NCBI GenBank assembly: GCA_963744145.1
Contig: CAVUSO010000001.1
Coordinates: forward strand, 6,720,001-6,784,000
DNA: 64,000 nucleotides
Direction: 5' to 3'
DNA from: an uncultured cyanobacterium
GTDB taxonomy: Bacteria; Cyanobacteriota; Cyanobacteriia; Cyanobacteriales; CAWUOF01
Shown: piece by piece, positions 1 to 53,397 of the stretch
How positions within the stretch are numbered: position 1 is the first letter of the stretch
Layout of the letters: each line of letters opens with the position of its first letter
Notes under the pieces: generated by a model
What the model saw: the letters and a program-made list of their open reading frames with translations, nothing else
The model's database searches: none
What the model was told of the DNA's origin: nothing
Made by a program: the position numbers and the translations under genes

Positions 1-1045
1 GAGTGCTACACCAACGTCCACTTGGTTCAGACGAATATTACGCAGGATCAGATTACGGGCTTCATTGGGCAGTGAAACCCCCACAAAAATTGTCCGTCCA
101 ATTCGATTCGCTTGTAATCCACTCAGACGGATCACATAATTGAACACATCTTGGACTGGTTCATTTTCAATGTCCAAGGAAATCAATGGACCGTCGCTCC
201 CAGCAGTAGCAGCTCCAGGTGCTGCTCCTTGACCAGGTGTAGCACTTGGGTTAGCAGTAAAAGCCAAATTTAGACCCGCTGATTTGGCTAATAAAATTAA
301 TACGTCTCGAGCTGGTGCATTTCGCAATACCAAGCGCGGTACTCGTTCAGCTGTTCCTAAATCGATCGTGTCGGGGGAGGTATCAATCGTAGTGGTGGTA
401 ATATCTCCGATCGGTGGTGGTACTGCTCTTGGTAAAAAAGGTGGTGCTGGGTTAACTGCTTGAGGAATACTATTTGGTGTGGTATTATCTTGCACCGTGA
501 CGTTCTGGATGGGGAACTAGGACATCAGGAGTTTGACTTTTCCCTGAATTTAGGGATTGGGGTGTCACATTTGGGCTAACTGATGTGGTAGCGGGCTCTT
601 GGGCGATCGCATTGGGTCCCGCTGGGAGAGTTGGGGCTGTACCGGGAGCAGCAATTACGTTGAACCCGATTGATTGAGAATTGCGATCGCCGATTTGTCC
701 AGTTGGTGCACTTGTTGTGCCACTAACTATCACCCGGATACTATGGGGATCAAGTTGAGTAACTACTACCGAAGCAATTCCCGGAGCCGGATTATCTTGC
801 CGAAAAGCCCCCCCATCAACCTGCAATTGAGTATTAATAATAGTAGCGACAAAGGAATTGCCCTGGGTGACGGTAAAAACCGCAGGACGTCCCATATTAT
901 CTGTATCTAAAAATAGATTAATGCCATTGCTAGTCGGATTAATCCGCACCCCTGTTACTTGAGTGACTGAAGCAGCCTGGACTGGTGCTTGCATCAAGAT
1001 GATGGCTGCGCCAATAATTCCTCCTAAGCTTTGATATTGCTTCAA
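1..1045 (-). CDS. pilQ: Type IV pilus secretin PilQ (AMIN N-terminal domain); runs off the window edge; one +1 frameshift near 502-514
   Basis: ORF 485-1045 has a signal peptide and AMIN-like domain. Removing one base near 502 continues into PPFLPRAVPPPIGDI...AERVPRLVLRNAPARDVLILLAKSAGLNL, typical of cyanobacterial PilQ. Lies downstream of pilMNO. Confidence 0.9.
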
Positions 1046-41503: not shown

Positions 41504-43591
41504 ATGCGTTACTGTTTTCATCCCCAGTGTGAAATGCCCCACCACCTTGATGGGACAGACTTTTGTCGGAGTTGTGGTACTAAACTCTTGCTCAAAGAGC
41601 GTTATCGAGCGATTAAACTACTGGGTGGGGGAGTTTTGGGTAGAACCTTTTTGGGTGTAGATGAAGACAAACCTTCTAAACCACTTTGTGTAATTAAGCA
41701 AATTTTTTTTCAACCCAATTTTAATTTTACTACAGAGCATCCTTTTCCAGCAAGCGAACAGCCTCAACCAGGATTGATAGAAAAGAACCATTACCACTCT
41801 GCTCAGGATCACCAAAACCTAGATTGGGAATTCTTTAATCACCTGACCATGAAGCTCGATGAACTAGGTCAACATCCTCAAATCCCCAATTTATTAGCAG
41901 CTTTTGGAGAAAATGGACATCAATATTTCGTCCAAGAATATATAGAAGGAAGAAATCTAGCGGAGGAATTAGGAGAAACTGGTGCTTTCACGGAAGTAAA
42001 AATTCGTCAGTTATTAAAAAGTTTACTACCTGTATTGCAGGTAATGCACGATCATCAGTTAATTCATCGGGATATAAAACCAGAAAATATCATTCGTCGT
42101 CGTTCCCATCAATCCCTGGTTAATAAAGGATATCTAGGGGATCTCAGTTTAGTGGATTTTGGTGCAGCGATATCAGTTGCCGATCGCTATTATAGTCTAA
42201 CCAACACAATCGTTGGTTCGGCTGAATATGCAGCTCCGGAACAGACTAAAGGACAAGCGGTGATTAGTAGCGATCTTTACAGTTTAGGGATCACTTGTAT
42301 CCATTTACTGACAGAACAGTCTCCTTTTACTCTCTTTGATCCTGAACAAGATTTATGGGTATGGCGATATTATTTAGATCAAGAACATAAGTGGAGATCG
42401 GGGAAAGCTCAAATTAGTGAGTCTTTAGCCAAAATCATTGATAAATTAATCGAAAAATCACCTAAAAAACGTTATCAATCTGCAACTGAGGTGATGAAAG
42501 ACCTAAATCATTGGATGATCTCTGCACCAGAGATTCCCCAAAAAACTAAATTAGCAGTAACCGCGCTAGGAGGAGCCGCGATCGCGATTTTCTTTGCTAC
42601 ACTTACTACCCATATCCAATATATTAATCCTATTCCCAAGACATCTTTTAATAGTCCAGAAATATATCTTTCCCAACCGAGTTCAACTGACTTGAGTTTT
42701 CCCCAGCACCAGCTCCAATTATGGCAAAATCTCACTGGAGTTAATGGTCCAGTTTGGTCTTTAGCAATTAGTCCAGATGGGAAAACTCTCGCGAGTGGTA
42801 GTTATAAAGATATTAAACTATGGCAATTAGGCAAAAATGAAACTAAAATGATTATTTCTGGACATACTGGTCCAGTTTGGTCGATCGCAATTAGTCCGAA
42901 TGGAAAACTGCTAGCTAGTGGGAGTGAAGATCACACAATCAAATTGTGGAATATCCAGAAAAGTCAATTATTAGCTACATTGAATGAACATTCAGCCGGA
43001 ATATTTGCGATCGCTTTTAGTCCTGATCATAATATTCTAGCTAGTGGGAGTGCGGATCAAACCATTAAACTTTGGAATGTCACGACCGGGGAATTAATTC
43101 GGACTTTGAGAGGTCACTCAGGTGAAGTTCAATCAGTAGCATTTAGTCCAGATGGCAAAATCTTAGCAAGTGGTAGCACTGATGGTACAGTAAAAGTGTG
43201 GAATTTGAGTAATGGTGAATTAATTCATACCTTAATTGGTCATACAGACGCAGTTTGGTCAGTTGCAATTAGTCCGGATGGGAAAACAATTGCGAGTGGG
43301 AGTTGGGATCATCAGATTAAGTTGTGGAATATTAATACAGGTAAACAGATTCAGACTCTGATTAGTCATACAGATAAAGTTCAATCAGTAACTTTTAGTC
43401 CAGATGGACATAGATTAGCTAGTGGTGATTTTGCTGGTACGATTAAACTTTGGGATTTAACGAACAATACCGCGATCGATAATATTAAAGCACATTCAGC
43501 TTTAGTACAGATGGTATTTAGTCAGGATGGTAAAGCGATCGCTAGTGGTAGTTTCGATCACACAATTAAAATCTGGAGAGTTTCTCCCTAG
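41504..43591 (+). CDS. Ser/Thr protein kinase (4-Cys N-terminus) - TM - WD40 repeats
   Basis: CVIKQ, HRDIKPEN, DFG, APE; hydrophobic segment; 7 divergent WD40 repeats. Confidence 0.92.
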   Translation: MRYCFHPQCEMPHHLDGTDFCRSCGTKLLLKERYRAIKLLGGGVLGRTFLGVDEDKPSKPLCVIKQIFFQPNFNFTTEHPFPASEQPQPGLIEKNHYHSAQDHQNLDWEFFNHLTMKLDELGQHPQIPNLLAAFGENGHQYFVQEYIEGRNLAEELGETGAFTEVKIRQLLKSLLPVLQVMHDHQLIHRDIKPENIIRRRSHQSLVNKGYLGDLSLVDFGAAISVADRYYSLTNTIVGSAEYAAPEQTKGQAVISSDLYSLGITCIHLLTEQSPFTLFDPEQDLWVWRYYLDQEHKWRSGKAQISESLAKIIDKLIEKSPKKRYQSATEVMKDLNHWMISAPEIPQKTKLAVTALGGAAIAIFFATLTTHIQYINPIPKTSFNSPEIYLSQPSSTDLSFPQHQLQLWQNLTGVNGPVWSLAISPDGKTLASGSYKDIKLWQLGKNETKMIISGHTGPVWSIAISPNGKLLASGSEDHTIKLWNIQKSQLLATLNEHSAGIFAIAFSPDHNILASGSADQTIKLWNVTTGELIRTLRGHSGEVQSVAFSPDGKILASGSTDGTVKVWNLSNGELIHTLIGHTDAVWSVAISPDGKTIASGSWDHQIKLWNINTGKQIQTLISHTDKVQSVTFSPDGHRLASGDFAGTIKLWDLTNNTAIDNIKAHSALVQMVFSQDGKAIASGSFDHTIKIWRVSP

Positions 43592-43808: not shown

Positions 43809-44615
43809 TCAGTCTTCCTCAACTTCTATTCCAGCTTGACGCAATTTTGCCGCTAATCGCTCGGCTCGTTGACGTTCTTGTTCAGCCCGTTGACGTTCTT
43901 GTTCAGCCCGTTGACGTTCTTGTTCAGCTCGTTGACGTTCTTGTTCAGTGAATTCTTCTGACCATAATAACAATTCACCTGCCAGATTCCACCATCTCAA
44001 CCAATAGCCAGTTCTACCTTCATGGTATCCGTGCCAAACTCCTAAAAATAGGTCTAAACCTGGTATCCAATAACGTCCATTTTCATCAGGTTGTTTGATT
44101 TGGTAGTGTTCTCCTTCTAAGCTATAAACTTCTAAATAAGCTGTACTAGCTCGGAAAATCACATAAATCGGTACTTTCAGCACTTGCTCATAAAAAAACC
44201 ACTTTCCCACTCGTTGGGTAAATTCCACGGAATATTCCTCTCCATAAGTTGCGGAAAGAAATTCCATCACAATTTGGGGAATCGGTCCTTCTGTGTGGGG
44301 GGTGTAACTCCGACGCACTTCAGGGACATTTTGAGGTTTAACTGGTTTAACATAGAACCAGTCTGGTGCTTTACAGATTGTTCGTGGTTCCTCGTCTTCT
44401 GTTAATGGGAAACTAATTCCTGCACAGAGGGCTAGATTAGAAACTACTAAAGCATCTTGCATTAATTTGGGGATAGCAGCAAGAGCCTGTCGTAAAGCTG
44501 CAGCTAATAAGGGTTGGCTTTCGTCTTCTACGGGATCATCTGGTAGTTGAAAATCGGCTGGCAAAATCGGCCAGGTAATGATTAGTTCGGTCGAATTCGT
44601 TAATATAGCTGTCAT
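43809..44615 (-). CDS. Uma2-family (DUF820) PD-(D/E)XK protein
   Basis: LPDDPV, KAPDWFYV, VMEFLS, KWFFYEQVL, WLRWW; C-terminal (EQERQRA)x4 21-bp repeats. Confidence 0.9.
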   Translation of the reverse strand: MTAILTNSTELIITWPILPADFQLPDDPVEDESQPLLAAALRQALAAIPKLMQDALVVSNLALCAGISFPLTEDEEPRTICKAPDWFYVKPVKPQNVPEVRRSYTPHTEGPIPQIVMEFLSATYGEEYSVEFTQRVGKWFFYEQVLKVPIYVIFRASTAYLEVYSLEGEHYQIKQPDENGRYWIPGLDLFLGVWHGYHEGRTGYWLRWWNLAGELLLWSEEFTEQERQRAEQERQRAEQERQRAEQERQRAERLAAKLRQAGIEVEED

Positions 44616-45075: not shown

Positions 45076-47011
45076 ATGACCTATTGCCTCAATCCCGATT
45101 GCCAAAAGCCTGATCTTAACCCAGATATAATTAGGTTTTGCCAAAGTTGTGGCTCAAATTTGCTGCTCAAAGACCGTTATCGTGCGATCAAACTGATTGG
45201 TCAAGGTGGATTTGGCAGAACTTTCCTGGCGTTTGATCAAGATAAACCCTCTAAACCCTATTGTGTCATTAAACAATTTCTCTATCAAGGTGCTGGGGCA
45301 CAAAGAGCAGCTGAGTTATTTGAACAAGAAGCAGTTCGATTAGATGATTTAGGTAAACATGATCAAATTCCTGAGTTATTTGCTCATTGCTCGGTCGAGC
45401 ATCGTCAATATTTGGTGCAGGAATTTATTGATGGGGAAAATTTAGGGACTATTTTAGAAAATGAAGGTGCTTTTAGTGAAAAGAAAATTAAGCAGTTGTT
45501 GAATAGATTATTACCTGTTCTGGATTTTATCCATTCTCATCATGTTATTCATCGTGATATCAAACCAGAAAATATTATTCGTCGTGCCGATGGTCAACTG
45601 GTTTTAGTTGATTTTGGTGCAGCTAAACACGCTACTATCACTACTCTAGCAAAAACCGGAACTGTGATCGGTTCGGTTGAATATACCGCTCCTGAACAAT
45701 CTCGAGGTAAAGCCTTGTTTGCTAGTGATATTTATAGTTTAGGAGTAACTTGTATTCATCTGTTGACTCAAGTTCCTCCTTTTGATTTATTTAGTGATAG
45801 TGAAGATGTTTGGGTCTGGAGAAGTTATTTACCTAAGCCTTTACAAGATCGCCATCTTGGTGAAGTTTTAGATAAAATGCTCCAAAGAGCAACTAGCCGT
45901 CGTTATAATACTGCTAATGAGGTTTTGCAAGATTCTTCAGCCTCAATCTTTTGCTGTTAGTCGTATCCCATTAGTTCAGTCTTCGTTTCTTCCTTCTTCC
46001 CCGACTTCTAGGTTAGCCACATCAGGAATTTTTCCTCATGTTACTATTTTAGCACAACCCTGGAGATGTGTTCGGACTCTTCGAGGACATTCTAATTGGG
46101 TGTGGTCGATCGCGGTTAGTCCCGATGGACAGACTTTAGCTAGTGGTAGTCGGGATAAGACGATTAAAATTTGGCATATTGGGACTGGAAGGGATATTTT
46201 TACTCTGAATGGACATTCTAACTGGGTTTGGTCTGTATCGATGAGCCCGGATGGTCAAACTTTAGCTAGTGCTAGTGAAGATAAAACCATTAAAATTTGG
46301 CAAATTGGTTCTGCGGAAACAACCATCGCTCCACACCAAAATCAAAAAATTATTCCTAGTTCAGTTTTGTCTCCTCCATCTTTGTTATTTACTCTGAATG
46401 AACATTCTCGTTCTGTTTATTCGGTTTCGATCAGTGCAGATGGAAAAACTTTAGCTAGTGGTAGTGGTGATAAAACTATTAAAATTTGGCATTTGGGAAT
46501 ACCTCACTCGATTCAAACTCTCACTCGTCATTCTTTTTGGGTTCGTTCTGTGACTTTTAGTCCGGATGGGAACATTTTGGCTAGTGGTAGTTTGGATAAT
46601 GATCATACTATTCATTTGTGGCACCAGAATACTGGTAAATGGAGTCGGACTTTAATGGGACATCTAGGTTGGGTTCGTTGTTTAGCTTTTACTCCCGATG
46701 GTCAAATTTTAGCTAGTGGGAGTAGCGATCGCACGATTAAATTATGGCACTTAGATTCGGCTCAGGAAATTCGCACTCTACAAGGACATACGGATTTGGT
46801 TGGTGCGATCGCGTTTTCGACCGATGGACAGACTTTATTTAGTGGTAGTCGGGATGAAACGATTCGGGTCTGGGATCGAGAAACTGGTCAAGAAATTGGT
46901 ATTCTCAGAGGACACACTGGGGGAGTTAGCTCTCTAGCTCTTACTCCCGATGGGGAAACTTTAGTTAGTGCCAGTATTGACCATACCATTAAAATTTGGC
47001 GGTGCGATTAA
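45076..47011 (+). CDS. Ser/Thr protein kinase with C-terminal WD40 repeats; +1 frameshift near 45934
   Basis: GQGGFGRT, HRDIKPEN, DFG; removing one T in GATTCTT gives QDLQPQSF in frame with the 7-WD40 ORF. Confidence 0.88.
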
Positions 47012-47051: not shown

Positions 47052-48536
47052 ATGAATGAGATTAATTTCTATTATGAAATTTTAGGACTGAATCCTGGAG
47101 CATCTTCTGCCCAAGTAAAGCAAGCTTACCGTAAACTTGCTAAGGTTTGGCATCCCGATCGCTTTCATAATGAACCTGATCTGAAACGGGAAGCAGAAGT
47201 AAAGATTAAACAAATTAATCAAGCTTATGAGTTTTTAAAAAATTATCAATCTCCCCCAGTTAATGGAGCTTCTTCTGTTAATATTTCTCCGACCTATTCC
47301 CGTTCAGCTCAAGATTATTATCAAGAAGGGTTGAGTTTTTTTAAGGATGGAAACTATCCAGAAGCGATCGAAGCTTTTACGAGGGCAATTAAAAGTAATG
47401 ATCATTATATTCAAGCCTATAAATATCGTGCGATCGTCTGTGATAAGTTAGGATACCATCATCGAGCAGATGCTGATTTTCGCAAAGCTTTAGAATTGGA
47501 ATTAATGCAGAAAATGGCAAATGCGAAAAATAAAACACCTCCAGCATCAAAGCAATCAAGTTCATCTTCTCCACCACCCCGATCAACCACACCTCCACCA
47601 CCAAAAACCGCCCCATCTGTACCGCCAAAATCAGAAATATCTTGGCAATATACTAATACTTTACCAGCTCATGCTGATTTAGTCGCCGCGATCGCGATTA
47701 GTCGAGATGGGAGAATTTTGGTTAGTAGTAGTTTCGATAAAACTATGAAAGTATGGAATATGCGAACAGGTCAATTAATGTTTACCTTGTCAGGACATTC
47801 TGACCGAGTGCGTTGTATTGCAATTAACCGGACTGGGATGTATCTTGCAAGTGGGAGTGCAGATAAAACGATTAAACTTTGGCACTTAAACACTGGGAAA
47901 GAAATTCGGACTTTTGGAAATTGGTTTTCTGGACATACGGATGAAGTTTTGGCACTTGGATTTAATCCAGATGGACAAACATTATTGAGTGGAAGTGCAG
48001 ATAAAACCATTAAATTATGGCAGGTTCATAGTGGAAAGGAAATATATAATCTCTCCGAAAATTTAGCACCCGTATTAGCGATCGCGATTAGTCCAGATGG
48101 TAAAAGTTTTGTGAGTGGGGGGTTAGAAAAAGCTTTAAAAATTAGACAAATTAGTGATGGTAAATTAATCCGGGCGATCGCGAATAATTCTTCCTATATC
48201 CTCAGTTTAGCTGTGAGTCCCGATGGGCAAATTTTAGCGACTAGCAGTTTAACTGAAATTAAACTCTGGCAAGTAGCTACAGGTCAAGAAATTTGTACCC
48301 TTAGTGGTCATTCAGATTTGGTACATTCGATCGCGTTTAGTCCTAATGGCCAAATTTTAGCTAGTGGCAGTTTTGATCATAATATTAAACTATGGCAACT
48401 AAGCACAGCTAAAGAAATTGCCACTTTAGCTGGATATTTAGGGAAAGTTTATTCAGTTGCTTTTACTCCGGATGGAAAAACTGTAGTTAGTGGAATTCAA
48501 GACGGAAGTATTAAAATTTGGCGACTGGGCAGTTAA
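47052..48536 (+). CDS. DnaJ (J-domain) - TPR - WD40 protein
   Basis: YYEILGL...WHPDRF; TPR pair; Pro-rich linker; 7 WD40 repeats. Confidence 0.92.
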   Translation: MNEINFYYEILGLNPGASSAQVKQAYRKLAKVWHPDRFHNEPDLKREAEVKIKQINQAYEFLKNYQSPPVNGASSVNISPTYSRSAQDYYQEGLSFFKDGNYPEAIEAFTRAIKSNDHYIQAYKYRAIVCDKLGYHHRADADFRKALELELMQKMANAKNKTPPASKQSSSSSPPPRSTTPPPPKTAPSVPPKSEISWQYTNTLPAHADLVAAIAISRDGRILVSSSFDKTMKVWNMRTGQLMFTLSGHSDRVRCIAINRTGMYLASGSADKTIKLWHLNTGKEIRTFGNWFSGHTDEVLALGFNPDGQTLLSGSADKTIKLWQVHSGKEIYNLSENLAPVLAIAISPDGKSFVSGGLEKALKIRQISDGKLIRAIANNSSYILSLAVSPDGQILATSSLTEIKLWQVATGQEICTLSGHSDLVHSIAFSPNGQILASGSFDHNIKLWQLSTAKEIATLAGYLGKVYSVAFTPDGKTVVSGIQDGSIKIWRLGS

Positions 48537-48971: not shown

Positions 48972-49242
48972 ATGAGCTATTGTCTAAATCTAGATTGTCA
49001 ACAGAAGGTGTTTTTGATCAAAACAAATTCGAGATTTACTCAATAGTTTACTACCTGTGCTAGAGTTTCTCCATTCTCATCAAGTTATTCATCGGGATAT
49101 TAAACCAGAAAATATTCTTCGTCGTGCTGATGGAATTATCAAAATTTGGAATTTAGCAACTCAAGTAGAAATTTATACAATATCAGCCCACACTGGTGGT
49201 ACTAATGGGTTAGCGATCGCTTCTAATCATCTCATCCTATAA
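48972..49242 (+). pseudogene. Multiply deleted kinase-WD40 gene remnant
   Basis: MSYCLNLDCQ | EGVFDQKQIRDLLNSLLPVLEFLHSHQVIHRDIKPENILRRADG | IIKIWNLATQ...AHTGG segments fused within 270 bp. Confidence 0.8.
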
Positions 49243-49299: not shown

Positions 49300-52200
49300 T
49301 TAATTCTTCTTGATGCTGATATCGTCGCAAATATGTCTGTCACTTTCATTTACACCAGAATCAGGATTGTGCAAATAAGCGGATAACCATTCACAACCTC
49401 GTCCTAAAAGATAGTTTAAACCAAATTCTAACTTCCATAGTTTGATCGTCTTGTCTCCACTACCAGAGGCCAAGGTATGACCATCAGGGCTAAAACTTAC
49501 GCTACTGACCGCATTACTATGGCCAGAGAGAGTGCGAAGTTCCTGCCCTGTCTTGACATCCCATAGTTTGATCGTCTTGTCCCAACTACCAGAGGCCAAG
49601 TTTTTACCATCGGGGCTGAACCTTACGCTATGGACCGGATCTCTATGGCTAGAGAGAGTGCGAAGTTCCTGCCCTGTCTTGACATCCCATAGTTTGATCA
49701 TCTTGTCAAAACTACCAGAGGCCAAGGTATGACCATCGGGGCTGAAACTTACGCTAATGACCCCATCACTATGGCCTTCGAGAGTGCGAAGTTCTTTCCC
49801 TGTCTTGACATCCCATAGTTTGATCGTCTTGTCAAAACTACCAGAGGCCAAGGTATGGCCATCGGGGCTGAAACTTACGCTAATGACCCCATTATTATGG
49901 CCTTTGAGAGTGCGAAGTTCTTTCCCTGTCTTGACATCCCATAGTTTGATCGTCTTGTCATCACTACCAGAGGCCAAGGTTTGACCATCGGGGCTGAAAC
50001 TTACGCTAATGACCCCATTATTATGGCCTTTGAGAGTGCGAAGTTCTTTCCCTGTCTTGACATCCCATAGTTTGATCGTCTTGTCATCACTACCAGAGGC
50101 CAAGGTTTGACCATCGGGGCTGAAACTTACGCTAAAGACAAAAGAACTATGGCCTTTGAGAGTGCGAAGTTCTTTCCCTGTCTTGACATCCCATAGTTTG
50201 ATCGTCTTGTCAAAACTACCAGAGGCCAAGGTTTGACCATCGGGGCTGAAACTTACGCTATTGACCCCACGACTATGGCCAGAGAGAGTGCCAAGTTCCT
50301 GCTCTGTCTTGACATCCCATAGTTTGATCGTCTTGTCCGAACTACCAGAGGCCAAGGTATGACCATCGGGGCTAAAACTTACGCTAATGACCCCATCACT
50401 ATGGCCAGAGAGAGTGCCAAGTTCCTGCTCTGTCTTGACATCCCATAGTTTGATCGTCTTGTCCGAACTACCAGAGGCCAAGGTATGACCATCGGGGCTA
50501 AAACTTACGCTAATGACCCCATCACTATGGCCAGAGAGAGTACGAAGTTCTTTCCCTGTCTTGACATCCCATAGTTTGATCGTCTTGTCCTTACTACCAG
50601 AGGCCAAGTTTTTACCATCGGGGCTAAAACTTACGCTAATGACCCCATCACTATGGCCAGAGAGAGTACGAAGTTCTTTCCCTGTCTTGACATCCCATAG
50701 TTTGATCGTCTTGTCCTTACTACCAGAGGCCAAGGTATGACCATTGGGGCTGAAACTTACGCTAATGACCCCATCACTATGGCCTTTGAGAGTGCGAAGT
50801 TCTTTCCCTGTCTTGACATCCCATAGTTTGATCGTCTTGTCCTTACTACCAGATGCCAAAGTATGACCATCGGGGCTGAAACTTACGCTAATGACCCCAT
50901 CACTATGGCCTTTGAGAGTGCGAAGTTCTTTCCCTGTCTTGACATCCCATAGTTTGATCGTCTTGTCCTTACTACCAGAGGCCAAGATTTGACCATCGGA
51001 GCTAAAACTTACGCTGCTGACCCCATCACCATGGCCAGAGAGAGTGCGAAGTTCTTTCCCTGTCTTGACATCCCATAGTTTGATCGTCTTGTCCTTACTA
51101 CCAGAGGCCAAGATTTGACCATCGGAGCTGAAACTTACGCTATGGACAAAAGAACTATGTTTTACCAAACGGTTGTGTTCCTTAACATCAAAAATTGAGA
51201 TTCCCAAAGCTGCTGTCACCGCTATTTCAGATATATTTTCTTTTTGCATAGTTTTGCCGGCCTTAATCGCGGTAATTAAAGCATCAAATTTTTCGTCCCT
51301 TGGATATAATAGGGATAAAGCATATTCTCCCTGAGCTTTAATTCCAATAAGTTTAGCGTTTCTATCACTATCTAAAGCAATTTTGATAGCGATCGCAGCG
51401 ATGGCTACTAATAATGTCATTATCCCCAGCATCAGCCTTAACACGAGCAGTCCCCGTTTTTTCTGTTTTTCAACAGCATCGAACGCACGACTAGACTCAA
51501 TAAACTTAGTTTGTAACTCTGTTATCGGCGGTTGCTTTTTATACTTACTTGCTTTCTGAAACCAGTCATCTGCGATCGCAAACTCACTACCTCTGAGCAG
51601 CAAATCATTATTTTGATCTTGGTTTTCCCATTCGATCGCCCGACGCAGCCATTTAGTATGACTTTGAATATATTCTCGGTCAGTATCTAAAGTTTTTAAC
51701 AACTGATTAACATTAGCATAAAATTCCCCTTCCTTTTGCCGAAAATCAATCCACTGAACCTTAGCTAACTCAGGATGTAATTCAGTAGTATTGACATCTT
51801 GATGCAATACCGTAATAAACCGTTTATTAAGTTTAGCTGCATATTCAACCTCATCAGCACAGAAAGGAGAATTAATAGAACGTGGTGACAAAATAAACAG
51901 AAAATTGTCAGCACTCTCAATTCCCAGATAAATCTCTTTCTGAAAATCTGCCCCTGAAGCGATACTCTCTTGGTCAAACCAAGTTGTCTTTCCGCGTACT
52001 TGCAACTCATCATTTAAGACACGGGCTAGATCCGAATCAGATCTGGAATAAGAAATAAATACATCTAGAGATGCAGCAGGAGGTTGGTGCAAACTCGCAT
52101 CAATAAACTCCTTCTGTAAAGTAGTAGGCTGATGTAGAGTTTTCTGTTCTGCCCCCTCTAACCAAATTTTAGCATGGCGCAAATTATAACCCCGCAATAG

Positions 52201-53397
52201 AATACTAGGATTGCGTTTCTGTTCTTCCCACTTCAACGCCTTACTTAGCAACATTTTATGCTCTTCGTAATAGCTCTCCTCCTCCCTTAAAACATTCAGC
52301 AAATCATCTAAATCCTGACGTAAATCTGCCTCAGTCTGATTATCAGTAAAGTCAATAAATTGTAATCCTCTAATTACTGATGGAATTTGGGCTAAATCTG
52401 TTGGCTTAATTAATAAAGGAATAATCCTTTTATTCAACGAGAGAGCATAGTCAATTTCTTTCTGACAGTAATAAGATTTCAGGGCATCGGTCGAGATTAA
52501 ATAGACAACATTATTTGCTTGTTCAATCCCCCGATTAATTGCTTCATCAAATACTTCTCCAGTTTGAATATCGGTCTGATTTGTCCAAACCGTAATACTT
52601 TCTCGTAATAATATCTCCCTAACTAGGAGCATAGTAGAAACATCTACTTCCGAATAGGAGAGAAACACCTGAGTCATTAAATTGCTTGCATTCTTGATAC
52701 TTTCGCAAATTAACTCACATTGCAATAATGTAGGTTCACAAGGTGCTTGTTCTTCCTTAAATCTCTTTTTTAACCATAACTCTGCCGTCTTTCGTTCTTC
52801 ACCAATTAATAAATAGCGAGTTTGTTTCTGTTGCTTTTCCCACGCGATCGCGAGATTTAAGAAAACAGTATGTTGTTGCACATAGTCTTGATGACGATGA
52901 AAGATGTCGATTAAATCGCTCAATCCTTTCTCAAAATCATCATCTTCTCGAACATAGATCCAATTGATTTTGCCGATGACAGGGTGCATATTAGTATAAC
53001 TAGAATGTTTTCCCTTCTCCTGATAAATTTGCCATTCGGCTTCAGACTTACCAGGATTACGTTGTTGCCAAGTTTCCTGACTAATTTGTTCAACGTGCAG
53101 GAGGGGAATAATTCGTTTTTTTAATTTGATGGCTAGTTCAATTTCTTTGCCACAATACTCAGAATTGACGGAATGGGGCGCAATGATAAAAATAAAGTTA
53201 TCAGCTTTGGTGATCCCATCATCTATTTGATTTTGAAAATCAACACCCAAGGGAATATCATTAGCATCAAACCATACTTTTAACCCTTGATCCTGCAATC
53301 GTTGTTGAAGTTTGGCAGCAAAAGCTTTACTATCTGCCCGACCATAGGAAATAAAAGCGTCGTAAAATTGGGTACTTGGGACTTGAAAATCACTCAT
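49300..53397 (-). CDS. Triple TIR domain - transmembrane helix - 14x WD40 protein
   Basis: Three F(I/L)SY...S..C..E TIR modules; LLVLRLMLGIMTLLVAIAAIAIKIAL TM; 14 WD40 repeats; tail LLGRGCEWLSAYL. Confidence 0.92.
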   Translation of the reverse strand: MSDFQVPSTQFYDAFISYGRADSKAFAAKLQQRLQDQGLKVWFDANDIPLGVDFQNQIDDGITKADNFIFIIAPHSVNSEYCGKEIELAIKLKKRIIPLLHVEQISQETWQQRNPGKSEAEWQIYQEKGKHSSYTNMHPVIGKINWIYVREDDDFEKGLSDLIDIFHRHQDYVQQHTVFLNLAIAWEKQQKQTRYLLIGEERKTAELWLKKRFKEEQAPCEPTLLQCELICESIKNASNLMTQVFLSYSEVDVSTMLLVREILLRESITVWTNQTDIQTGEVFDEAINRGIEQANNVVYLISTDALKSYYCQKEIDYALSLNKRIIPLLIKPTDLAQIPSVIRGLQFIDFTDNQTEADLRQDLDDLLNVLREEESYYEEHKMLLSKALKWEEQKRNPSILLRGYNLRHAKIWLEGAEQKTLHQPTTLQKEFIDASLHQPPAASLDVFISYSRSDSDLARVLNDELQVRGKTTWFDQESIASGADFQKEIYLGIESADNFLFILSPRSINSPFCADEVEYAAKLNKRFITVLHQDVNTTELHPELAKVQWIDFRQKEGEFYANVNQLLKTLDTDREYIQSHTKWLRRAIEWENQDQNNDLLLRGSEFAIADDWFQKASKYKKQPPITELQTKFIESSRAFDAVEKQKKRGLLVLRLMLGIMTLLVAIAAIAIKIALDSDRNAKLIGIKAQGEYALSLLYPRDEKFDALITAIKAGKTMQKENISEIAVTAALGISIFDVKEHNRLVKHSSFVHSVSFSSDGQILASGSKDKTIKLWDVKTGKELRTLSGHGDGVSSVSFSSDGQILASGSKDKTIKLWDVKTGKELRTLKGHSDGVISVSFSPDGHTLASGSKDKTIKLWDVKTGKELRTLKGHSDGVISVSFSPNGHTLASGSKDKTIKLWDVKTGKELRTLSGHSDGVISVSFSPDGKNLASGSKDKTIKLWDVKTGKELRTLSGHSDGVISVSFSPDGHTLASGSSDKTIKLWDVKTEQELGTLSGHSDGVISVSFSPDGHTLASGSSDKTIKLWDVKTEQELGTLSGHSRGVNSVSFSPDGQTLASGSFDKTIKLWDVKTGKELRTLKGHSSFVFSVSFSPDGQTLASGSDDKTIKLWDVKTGKELRTLKGHNNGVISVSFSPDGQTLASGSDDKTIKLWDVKTGKELRTLKGHNNGVISVSFSPDGHTLASGSFDKTIKLWDVKTGKELRTLEGHSDGVISVSFSPDGHTLASGSFDKMIKLWDVKTGQELRTLSSHRDPVHSVRFSPDGKNLASGSWDKTIKLWDVKTGQELRTLSGHSNAVSSVSFSPDGHTLASGSGDKTIKLWKLEFGLNYLLGRGCEWLSAYLHNPDSGVNESDRHICDDISIKKN
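49435..51159 (-). repeat. 126-bp coding tandem array (14 near-identical WD40 units)
   Basis: CTGTCTTGACATCCCATAGTTTGATC recurs with an exact 126-bp period. Confidence 0.97.

Follow-up and report, generated by a model that had tools for sequence, protein, structure and literature searches.

Locus and domain organization

The stretch of DNA analysed here (the window, 64,000 nucleotides from an uncultured cyanobacterium) carries a gene that, by ORF translation, is a single open reading frame of 1365 amino acids with an ATG start. The initial annotation, made from the letters alone, had read this frame as three TIR domains each with a glutamate of the enzymatic type, each followed by a W...LL.G helical module, then one hydrophobic helix behind a basic KKR, 14 WD40 repeats and a tail with two cysteines, with no NTPase motif. 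Every element of this layout was recovered (Table 1). A scan for promoters and terminators was uninformative, with 14 and 3 sites where shuffled sequences gave 12.9 and 3.9.

Table 1. Features of the TIR-triplet gene and their positions in the window
Feature	Position	Strand	Basis or remark
Whole ORF, 1365 aa	49300..53397	(-)	Stop codon at 49300-49302
TIR-A, about residues 13-166	52900..53361	(-)	Pfam TIR/TIR_2; TcpB alignment; invariant E85
Catalytic-type Glu85 of TIR-A	53143-53145	(-)	Invariant in alignment
Helical module 1, residues 168-237	52687..52896	(-)	Module profile E 9e-28; W186, L196, L197, G199 and W208 invariant
TIR-B, about residues 243-370	52288..52671	(-)	Pfam ThsB_TIR/TIR_2; PDB matches; invariant E314
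Glu314 of TIR-B	52456-52458	(-)	Invariant in alignment
Helical module 2, residues 373-439	52081..52281	(-)	Module profile E 1e-25
TIR-C, residues 446-567	51697..52062	(-)	Best Pfam TIR_2 stretch; Cat1 and SARM1 alignments; invariant E516
Glu516 of TIR-C	51850-51852	(-)	Invariant in alignment
Helical module 3, residues 572-637	51487..51684	(-)	Module profile E 2e-28
Single predicted TM helix, about residues 647-678, after EKQKKR	51364..51459	(-)	Hydrophobicity scan; kept in relatives
Membrane-adjacent linker, residues 679-743	51169..51363	(-)	Conserved even in the paralogue without the helix
14 WD40 blades of 42 aa each, residues 744-1330, WRAP-like	49408..51168	(-)	Pfam; repeat analysis
C-terminal tail GCxWLxxYLHNPDSG...RHICDD with Cys1335 and Cys1357	49303..49407	(-)	Conserved

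In Pfam the protein matches TIR_2 (PF13676) in three stretches, scoring 260.1 bits where the cut-off is 28, the TIR-C stretch covering positions 1-122 of the 122 in the model. Enzymatic TIRs carry their catalytic glutamate in an S-x-aromatic-C-x-x-E helix. The residues E85, E314 and E516 are kept in all 40 sequences of the family alignment, and in alignments with PDB sequences the glutamate of TIR-A lines up with that of Brucella TcpB and the glutamate of TIR-C with that of Cat1. The best PDB matches of TIR-B are the TIRs of Hydra TRR2 and of MyD88, and TIR-C matches SARM1 and Cat1, whose PDB entries describe an NAD hydrolase and a filament-forming TIR. A conserved insertion lies inside TIR-A at about residues 100-150. 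Judged by these glutamates, all three TIRs are of the predicted NAD-cleaving type.

The helical module of about 68 amino acids that follows each TIR is a genuine repeat, since a single profile matches all three copies with E values from 1e-25 to 1e-28, and its W, L, L, G and W residues are invariant in each copy across the 40-sequence alignment. No Pfam family covers the modules (residues 1-738, E up to 1), their profile found no match among PDB sequences at E up to 10, and a search of the ESM Atlas with the third module returned nothing informative, its best score of 0.77 being a lead only. The protein is devoid of the Walker A motif [AG]xxxxGK[ST], and Pfam places no NTPase family on residues 1-738. 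A STAND/NLR-type receptor, in which a P-loop NTPase stands between effector and repeats, was rejected because neither the motif scan nor Pfam revealed such an NTPase.

The C-terminal array matches WD40 (PF00400) in 14 stretches with 640.9 bits against a cut-off of 27, and among PDB entries it comes closest to the WRAP propeller 2YMU (E 3e-262). Its blades share a mean nucleotide identity of 87%, two of them being identical, and the variation is confined to few codons, at positions 2, 5, 6, 7, 9, 18, 19, 25 and 38 of the unit. In the nearest relative, which has 9 blades, the variable codons specify different residues. As read from these repeats, the predicted WD40 sensor is fast-evolving.

Family distribution and linkage to effector genes

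Far from the isolated oddity that the label of an undescribed system might suggest, the gene is one of nine family copies in its own genome, and the family counts hundreds of members, mainly in filamentous cyanobacteria. Judged by the names of the hosts of its relatives, it concentrates in filamentous, multicellular cyanobacteria and in Ca. Parabeggiatoa. PD-T4-6-like kinases neighbour the gene, whose setting is not a classical defence island.

Among 80 related loci, an LSDAT_prok SLOG gene was found in 21, a patatin gene in 16 and a DUF4231/SLATT gene in 18. At least one of the three stands beside the family gene in 34 loci, leaving 46 without, and among the loci with full flanks 18 of 40 hold at least one. 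The genome under study contains a single fused LSDAT_prok-SLATT gene (449 aa), which lies 178 bp away from paralogue L003 and is encoded on the other strand. Adjacency of TIR and effector genes of the Thoeris type occurs at 34 of the 80 family loci and at L003, not at the window locus, where genes for SLOG, SLATT and patatin are all absent out to about 8 kb; we assume that the window copy would act on an effector in trans. In a sample of 301 genomes of the phylum, LSDAT_prok was present in 9 of 10 genomes with the TIR triplet versus 13 of 291 without it, an association that Fisher p-values overstate because the compared genomes share kinship. The triplet and LSDAT_prok lie within 8 kb of each other in 6 of the 9 genomes holding both. 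Both the 46 loci without such a neighbour and the 13 genomes that have LSDAT_prok without the TIR-triplet family count against a receptor-effector pathway; LSDAT_prok adjoins SLATT in 11 of 13 LSDAT loci of triplet-free genomes.

This linkage of the TIR-triplet family with an LSDAT-type SLOG, a patatin lipase and SLATT is what is new here. Given its anatomy and relatives that adjoin genes for membrane-damaging effectors, the protein looks like an outside-in immune receptor. The immune role put forward in the initial annotation thus gains comparative backing from the linked genes, although the window copy itself has no adjacent effector.

The window copy and the 46 loci without a SLOG, SLATT or patatin neighbour would also suit a self-contained suicide receptor, in which clustering by a ligand makes the three TIRs deplete NAD and arrest the cell with neither a messenger nor a separate effector; the matches of TIR-C to an NAD hydrolase and a filament-forming TIR agree with this. 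We consider it unlikely, as it is hard to see, unless a signal is read, why LSDAT_prok should be so strongly linked to the family and co-occur with it.

We attach a similarly low probability to a function other than defence against phages, namely self/non-self recognition or signalling between cells of the filament (in allorecognition, kin discrimination or developmental cell death) through the same TIR-to-effector chemistry. Such a function would fit the host range noted above, the several paralogues per genome, and a location outside classical defence islands, despite the adjoining PD-T4-6-like kinases. It would also fit the repetitive hypervariable arrays, which the WRAP literature, in the text available, connects with self-recognition and immunity. 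However, the effector types involved, SLATT and a patatin resembling the CBASS lipase, are those of anti-phage systems.

Membrane topology

The topology was assessed from simple hydrophobicity and charge counts, together with several comparative lines. The sole hydrophobic stretch (19-residue windows starting at residues 647-660, Kyte-Doolittle mean above 1.6 and maximum 2.54) is preceded by the basic EKQKKR, and two samples of relatives keep the helix in 112 of 120 and 129 of 141 members. The 15 residues before the helix hold more Lys and Arg than those after it in 106 of 112 relatives, while 5 show equal numbers and 1 the opposite bias (means 4.84 before and 2.32 after). The protein has no N-terminal signal peptide. 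In some relatives the place behind the helix is occupied by a CHASE2 domain flanked by further TM helices or by a dCache domain between two TM helices; FGE-sulfatase/lectin-like, WG-repeat or DM9 domains are found there in others. One relative, P0143, has the order TIR3-TM-dCache-TM-short RR loop-TM-WD40, and the two-helix hairpin between dCache and WD40 consequently places the WD40 part on the dCache side.

The cysteine pattern points the same way. Cysteines occur only at residues 82, 220, 227, 231, 311, 513, 1335 and 1357, so that the part behind the helix holds just the two of the tail. The WD40 array is free of cysteine in 81 of 120 helix-bearing relatives with at least five WD repeats (median 0%), and the median in their TIR part is 1.1%; in seven helix-less relatives the WD40 cysteine content ranges from 0 to 1.78%. 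As a control within the same genome, 13 of 19 WD arrays behind a helix are cysteine-free versus 2 of 16 without a helix (Mann-Whitney p 2e-4). Taken with the basic residues before the helix, the CHASE2, dCache and lectin-like swaps and the P0143 hairpin, these cysteine-poor arrays suggest that the TIR part probably lies inside the cytoplasm and the WD40 array outside it, as initially proposed.

Paralogue L006 and a minority of the relatives show a clean loss of the helix but retain WD40 and tail, from which it follows that a cytoplasmic sensor, whether functional or decaying, can occur as well. Three helix-less relatives were scanned and carried, one each, TPR, pentapeptide plus FHA, and WD40 domains. 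Such members, together with the classically cytoplasmic WD40 arrays of STAND proteins (in the available portion of the APAF-1 literature), would be expected if the helix were an anchor only and the WD40 part sensed intracellular proteins at the membrane. This arrangement is less probable than either alternative above: it would place the 646 residues of the TIR part outside without a signal peptide, and the charge bias, the CHASE2 and dCache swaps, the P0143 hairpin and the cysteine depletion all run opposite to it.

Comparison with known systems

Much of the predicted logic is familiar from Thoeris, in which TIR proteins work with SLOG or SLATT effectors (10.64898/2025.12.03.692087), and in this respect too the notion of an undescribed system has to be narrowed. 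According to the available part of that report, which predicts 29 types, type I relies on the SIR2-SLOG protein ThsA, whose SLOG reads 3'cADPR, type III combines several TIR proteins with a SLOG effector, and type VII pairs a TIR with the SLATT effector ThsH and a cADPR signal; it describes TIR proteins and effectors only, and no membrane-spanning TIR sensor. The family shares with Thoeris a TIR with catalytic-type glutamate whose gene is linked to one for a SLOG sensor and/or for a SLATT effector or lipase, and a predicted logic in which an NAD-derived signal is made and the cell is then damaged. Whereas ThsB of Thoeris is small and cytoplasmic, the protein studied here, at 1365 aa, is a predicted membrane receptor that combines three TIRs with a sensor probably lying outside the cytoplasm. 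Its linked SLOG is of the TRPM-like LSDAT_prok type, unlike that of Thoeris, and one effector gene would serve up to nine dispersed receptor genes. Membership in the type III ThcB4 equivalog (NCBIfam NF058526) was rejected because the protein scores 96.8 bits, below the cut-off of 220. The conflict systems built on LSDAT_prok SLOG and SLATT (Pfam PF18171, PF14015/PF18184), reportedly described by Burroughs et al. in NAR in 2015, have the identical sensor-effector pair, which is fused in the genome under study.

The propeller has its closest counterpart in the WRAP of Nostoc punctiforme Npun_R6612 (PDB 2YMU), with which it shares fourteen near-identical, recently amplified WD40 blades with few variable positions. 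A role in innate immunity was proposed for WRAP-type propellers in the text available of 10.1101/2022.03.13.484165, which cites Dunin-Horkawicz et al. (2014) for cyanobacterial STAND-WD40 and TIR-STAND pairs. While WRAP sits after a STAND ATPase, the present propeller is preceded by a TM helix that connects it to the TIR triplet, with no NTPase.

The initial annotation had also likened the architecture to that of a Toll-like receptor. The layout stands as described, and a single membrane pass, an ectodomain built of repeats and a cytoplasmic TIR part are probably common to both, but the likeness is one of analogy. In Toll-like receptors a signal peptide and an LRR ectodomain come first and a lone scaffold TIR stands at the C-terminus, whereas here the order is reversed, the three enzyme-type TIRs being N-terminal and the ectodomain made of WD40 repeats; with WD40 instead of LRR, three N-terminal TIRs and no N-terminal signal peptide, membership in that family was rejected. 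That the TIRs are non-catalytic scaffolds recruiting partners, as in animal TLR/MyD88 signalling, is highly improbable despite the closeness of TIR-B to Hydra TRR2 and MyD88, given the glutamate conserved in all three TIRs of every aligned sequence and linked genes that encode SLOG-type small-molecule sensors and not TIR adaptors.

Proposed mechanism and implications

We propose, at roughly even chances, that the protein is a type II single-pass receptor in a Thoeris-like pathway with a transmembrane TIR enzyme. We infer all biochemical steps of this model; its anatomy, the conservation of the glutamates and the helix, the charge bias, the domain swaps, the cysteine pattern, the gene linkage and the co-occurrence are direct observations. 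The cytoplasm would contain the three TIRs, each with its helical spacer module, and the periplasm (or thylakoid lumen) the hypervariable 14-blade WD40 double propeller with its cysteine-pair tail. A foreign or danger protein may bind the propeller face bearing the variable residues and cluster the receptor chains, upon which the TIRs, by analogy with known TIR enzymes, would form an active NAD-cleaving array and produce a signal derived from ADP-ribose. This signal would be read by the single LSDAT-type SLOG sensor of the genome, whose fusion partner is a two-helix SLATT membrane effector, while elsewhere the effector role may fall to a SLOG protein together with a patatin lipase. Membrane damage, then cell arrest or death, would be the outcome.

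The nine paralogues would then form a germline receptor repertoire with differing propeller surfaces and one common effector. More tentatively, it is possible that in filamentous cyanobacteria hypervariable propellers in the periplasm recognize phage or other foreign proteins ahead of entry or while it is under way, and that an NAD-derived messenger made by the TIR triplet acts on one shared SLOG-gated effector, a convergent TLR-like logic running on Thoeris chemistry.

If a membrane-spanning TIR enzyme does sense the periplasm in this manner, extracellular surveillance would be added to bacterial immunity, and the family would provide a tractable model of how ligand-driven clustering switches TIR enzymes on. 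It would also represent, in multicellular bacteria, a layout of many receptors and one effector with fast-diversifying sensor repeats. The link to SLOG sensors of the TRPM type (LSDAT) is also relevant to how ADPR-gated channels originated.

Architecture of the putative receptor gene

The architecture read from the sequence by the initial annotation is confirmed. Pfam detects three TIR_2 domains (260 bits against a cut-off of 28) followed by 14 WD40 repeats, and the glutamate claimed for each TIR domain (E85, E314 and E516) is invariant in an alignment of 40 sequences. The W...LL.G helical module noticed after every TIR domain is equally real, being a unit of about 68 aa in which W-LL-G-W is invariant throughout the same 40 sequences. 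Within the same genome, every match of the module profile except a single weak one falls in a triple-TIR paralogue. The reported absence of an NTPase motif also holds, as no Walker A motif was found in the ORF and no Pfam family other than TIR matched residues 1-738 at E up to 1. The glutamate of TIR-A, the N-terminal domain, aligns with that of Brucella TcpB and the glutamate of TIR-C with that of Cat1; TIR-C also matches SARM1, and TIR-B matches Hydra TRR2, Cat1 and MyD88. TIR-A carries an insertion in which W110, P115, W122, Y125, G129, H131, N136, N145 and W146 are invariant.

A single hydrophobic helix behind a basic KKR, again as first described, leads into a conserved linker; the 14 blades, each 42 aa long, come next, and the tail GCEWLSAYLHNPDSG...RHICDD closes the protein. 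The last 690 residues contain just two cysteines, both in this tail, in agreement with the two-Cys tail initially noted.

Positions of the receptor gene, its parts, neighbouring genes and two paralogues (G000:C1, contig of the same genome)
Feature	Position	Strand	Details
Receptor ORF	49300-53397	-	single ORF, 1365 aa
TIR-A insertion	52948-53100	-	conserved, ~50 residues, about residues 100-150; absent from TIR-B and TIR-C
Helical modules	residues 168-237, 373-439, 572-637		module profile, E 1e-25 to 1e-28
Hydrophobic helix	residues 647-678		sole strongly hydrophobic stretch; Kyte-Doolittle maximum 2.54; preceded by EKQKKR
Ser/Thr kinase-TM-WD40 protein	41504-43591	+	695 aa; WD array Cys-free
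Uma2-family putative endonuclease	43809-44615	-	ERQRAEQ repeat run at C-terminus
PD-T4-6-like kinase ORF	45076-45960	+	4.2e-129
7-blade WD40 ORF	45917-47011	+	other frame; overlaps the preceding kinase ORF
J-domain-like/WD40 ORF	47052-48536	+	J-domain-like N-terminus, Pro/Ser-rich linker, 7-blade WD40 part
61-aa ORF	49057-49242	+	kinase catalytic-loop fragment (HRDIKPEN) joined to WD40 fragments
Paralogue L006	G000:C1:71227-76341		exact TM-helix deletion; 20-21 blades, two extra Cys, one disrupted blade
Paralogue L007	G000:C1:76301-78634		short, 757-775 aa; TIR triplet, weak hydrophobic helix

The WD40 units share a mean nucleotide identity of 87%, units 6 and 7 being identical, and most of their codons occur in one or two variants. 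Variation falls at positions 2, 5, 6, 7, 9, 18, 19, 25 and 38, of which positions 5-9 and 25, judged from WD40 structures in general, presumably lie in top-face loops. At the amino-acid level the internal identity of the array (81%) is the highest of six paralogous arrays, the others ranging from 67 to 76%. The nearest relative, P0010, is 85% identical in the TIR part and has nine blades with different residues at the variable places. The best solved relative is the WRAP propeller 2YMU (E 3e-262); the WRAP literature ties such propellers to STAND ATPases and immunity. The combination of TIR triplet, TM helix and WD40 array is not described in the full-text literature searched, including the accessible portions of PMC7159879, PMC10907252, PMC8195603, PMC9503650, PMC7517822 and PMC9153377, although Burroughs et al. 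2015 or the supplements of the Thoeris preprint (10.64898/2025.12.03.692087) may list it.

Membrane topology

Since no N-terminal signal peptide was found in the receptor ORF, the TIR part (646 residues) would be expected to remain inside the cell, and four comparative lines (charge, domain swaps, the relative P0143 and Cys depletion) agree with this predicted placement. Among 120 listed relatives, 112 bear the helix; Lys and Arg are more numerous before it than after it in 106 of these, equal in five and fewer in one. In 129 of 141 further representatives, a helix lies no more than 60 residues from the last module. Domains replacing the propeller behind the helix include CHASE2 with additional TM helices behind it, dCache flanked by two TM helices, FGE-sulfatase/lectin-like domains, WG repeats, DM9 and multi-TM blocks, while the three helix-less relatives scanned carry TPR, pentapeptide plus FHA, and WD40, respectively. 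In five relatives (P0202, P0220, P0227, P0239 and P0254) the TIR triplet precedes 9 to 13 predicted TM helices that match no Pfam family, probably another output or sensor type.

P0143 may act as a natural reporter of the WD40 side: its predicted order, TIR3-TM-dCache-TM-17-residue basic loop-TM-WD40, would place the propeller on the dCache side in this one case. Cysteines, which have a median content of 1.1% in the TIR parts, are missing from 81 of the 120 arrays that have five or more blades and stand behind a helix; where the helix is lacking, four of seven relatives contain 0.9-1.8%. Within the same genome, Cys is absent from 13 of the 19 WD arrays preceded by a helix and from 2 of the 16 others (p 2e-4), these two being short fragments. 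The conserved pair of Cys at the end of a domain with no others would fit one disulfide in an oxidising compartment. Against an extracytoplasmic propeller stands the existence of family members without the helix. Taken by comparison, the reading of the gene as a receptor appears well supported.

The same genome also encodes four proteins (L091-L094), three with nSTAND1 NTPase heads and one with AAA_35, in which a TM helix precedes a WD40 array free of Cys. A similar tail with two Cys is present in L091 and L094; L092 and L093 have a different C-terminal region. This arrangement suggests that the TM-WD40 sensor module is common to several cytoplasmic signalling heads.

Paralogues and distribution

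The receptor gene is part of a family and not a singleton. It adjoins a PanC/Cmk fusion, an arrangement of domains typical of cyanobacteria, in a 7.7 Mb genome where 27 of the 28 TIR_2 matches group as nine triplets. Seven triplet genes retain the helix. L006, lacking exactly the helix and having a disrupted blade, is a cytoplasmic variant or, alternatively, a copy in decay, and another gene is broken by stops. L006 stands in tandem with L007, which has no WD40 repeats and in which the Cys tail is shortened. The Cys tail is present in every intact copy, and the eight translatable copies form one clade (FastTree, read from topology alone).

With the N-terminal 735 residues as query, 1467 of 7999 scored proteins matched at E up to 1e-3; the genome collection contains at least 789 matching stretches. 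The module profile matched 5036 representative proteins at the same E threshold and 279 at 1e-30. Source names are for the most part filamentous cyanobacteria, along with Ca. Parabeggiatoa. Elsewhere in the family TIR units occur in sets of five (A-B-A-B-C) and in larger sets.

Neighbouring genes in the window

Three consecutive WD40 genes lie upstream of the receptor gene in window coordinates, the J-domain-like ORF being the third. In the first, the kinase part matches the PADLOC models of the PD-T4-6 defence kinase along nearly their full length (1.9e-105). The second, which has no TM helix, looks like one kinase-WD40 gene split by a frameshift into two ORFs. The 61-aa ORF just downstream of the receptor gene is a kinase-WD40 gene remnant.

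Linked SLOG, SLATT and patatin genes

Clustering of the ORFs of 80 related loci revealed three recurrent neighbours: LSDAT_prok ("SLOG in TRPM, prokaryote"), patatin and DUF4231/SLATT (Pfam). The SLATT protein scores above its NCBIfam cut-off; the patatin stays below that of the NCBIfam CBASS lipase model (126 bits, cut-off 200) and matches CBASS phospholipase effectors in PADLOC at 2.5e-48. By profile, SLOG is present at 21, patatin at 16 and SLATT at 18 of the 80 loci, and at least one of them at 34. When the count is confined to the 40 loci whose flanks reach 4 kb or more upstream and 2.5 kb or more downstream, 18 have at least one of the three. SLOG-patatin-receptor and receptor-SLATT are the usual gene orders. 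In the tree, 31 of 78 receptor ORFs, on many different branches, lie no more than 3.5 kb from such a gene. The only LSDAT_prok match in the same genome is a fusion of SLOG and SLATT, 449 aa long, whose gene lies on the strand opposite to the paralogue L003 at a distance of 178 bp.

Among 301 sampled genomes of the phylum, a strong LSDAT_prok match occurs in 22 (leaving out three weak ones, E 2e-5 to 5e-4) and a TIR triplet (E up to 1e-50) in 10. Nine of these 10 encode LSDAT_prok, the remaining one being a 450-contig assembly, versus 13 of the 291 triplet-free genomes (Fisher p 1e-10, which overstates the association because related genomes are not independent). Six of the nine genomes that have both genes carry them no more than 8 kb apart. 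SLATT adjoins LSDAT in 11 of the 13 triplet-free genomes, which suggests that SLOG and SLATT are the core pair and the receptor one partner.

Comparison with Thoeris

In Thoeris, as set out in a preprint (10.64898/2025.12.03.692087), a TIR protein makes an ADPR-derived signal that an effector reads: SLOG reads 3'cADPR in type I, several TIR proteins accompany a SLOG effector in type III, and SLATT effectors respond to cADPR in type VII. This TIR-signal-effector logic fits the receptor family, which differs in that its TIR enzyme would itself be a transmembrane receptor. Ligand bound outside would cluster the receptor chains, clustering would activate the TIR triplets, and their product would open the SLOG-SLATT protein or activate the lipase; for the copy in the window, the effector would have to act in trans. 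We predict that the gene encodes Thoeris-like signalling with a membrane receptor.
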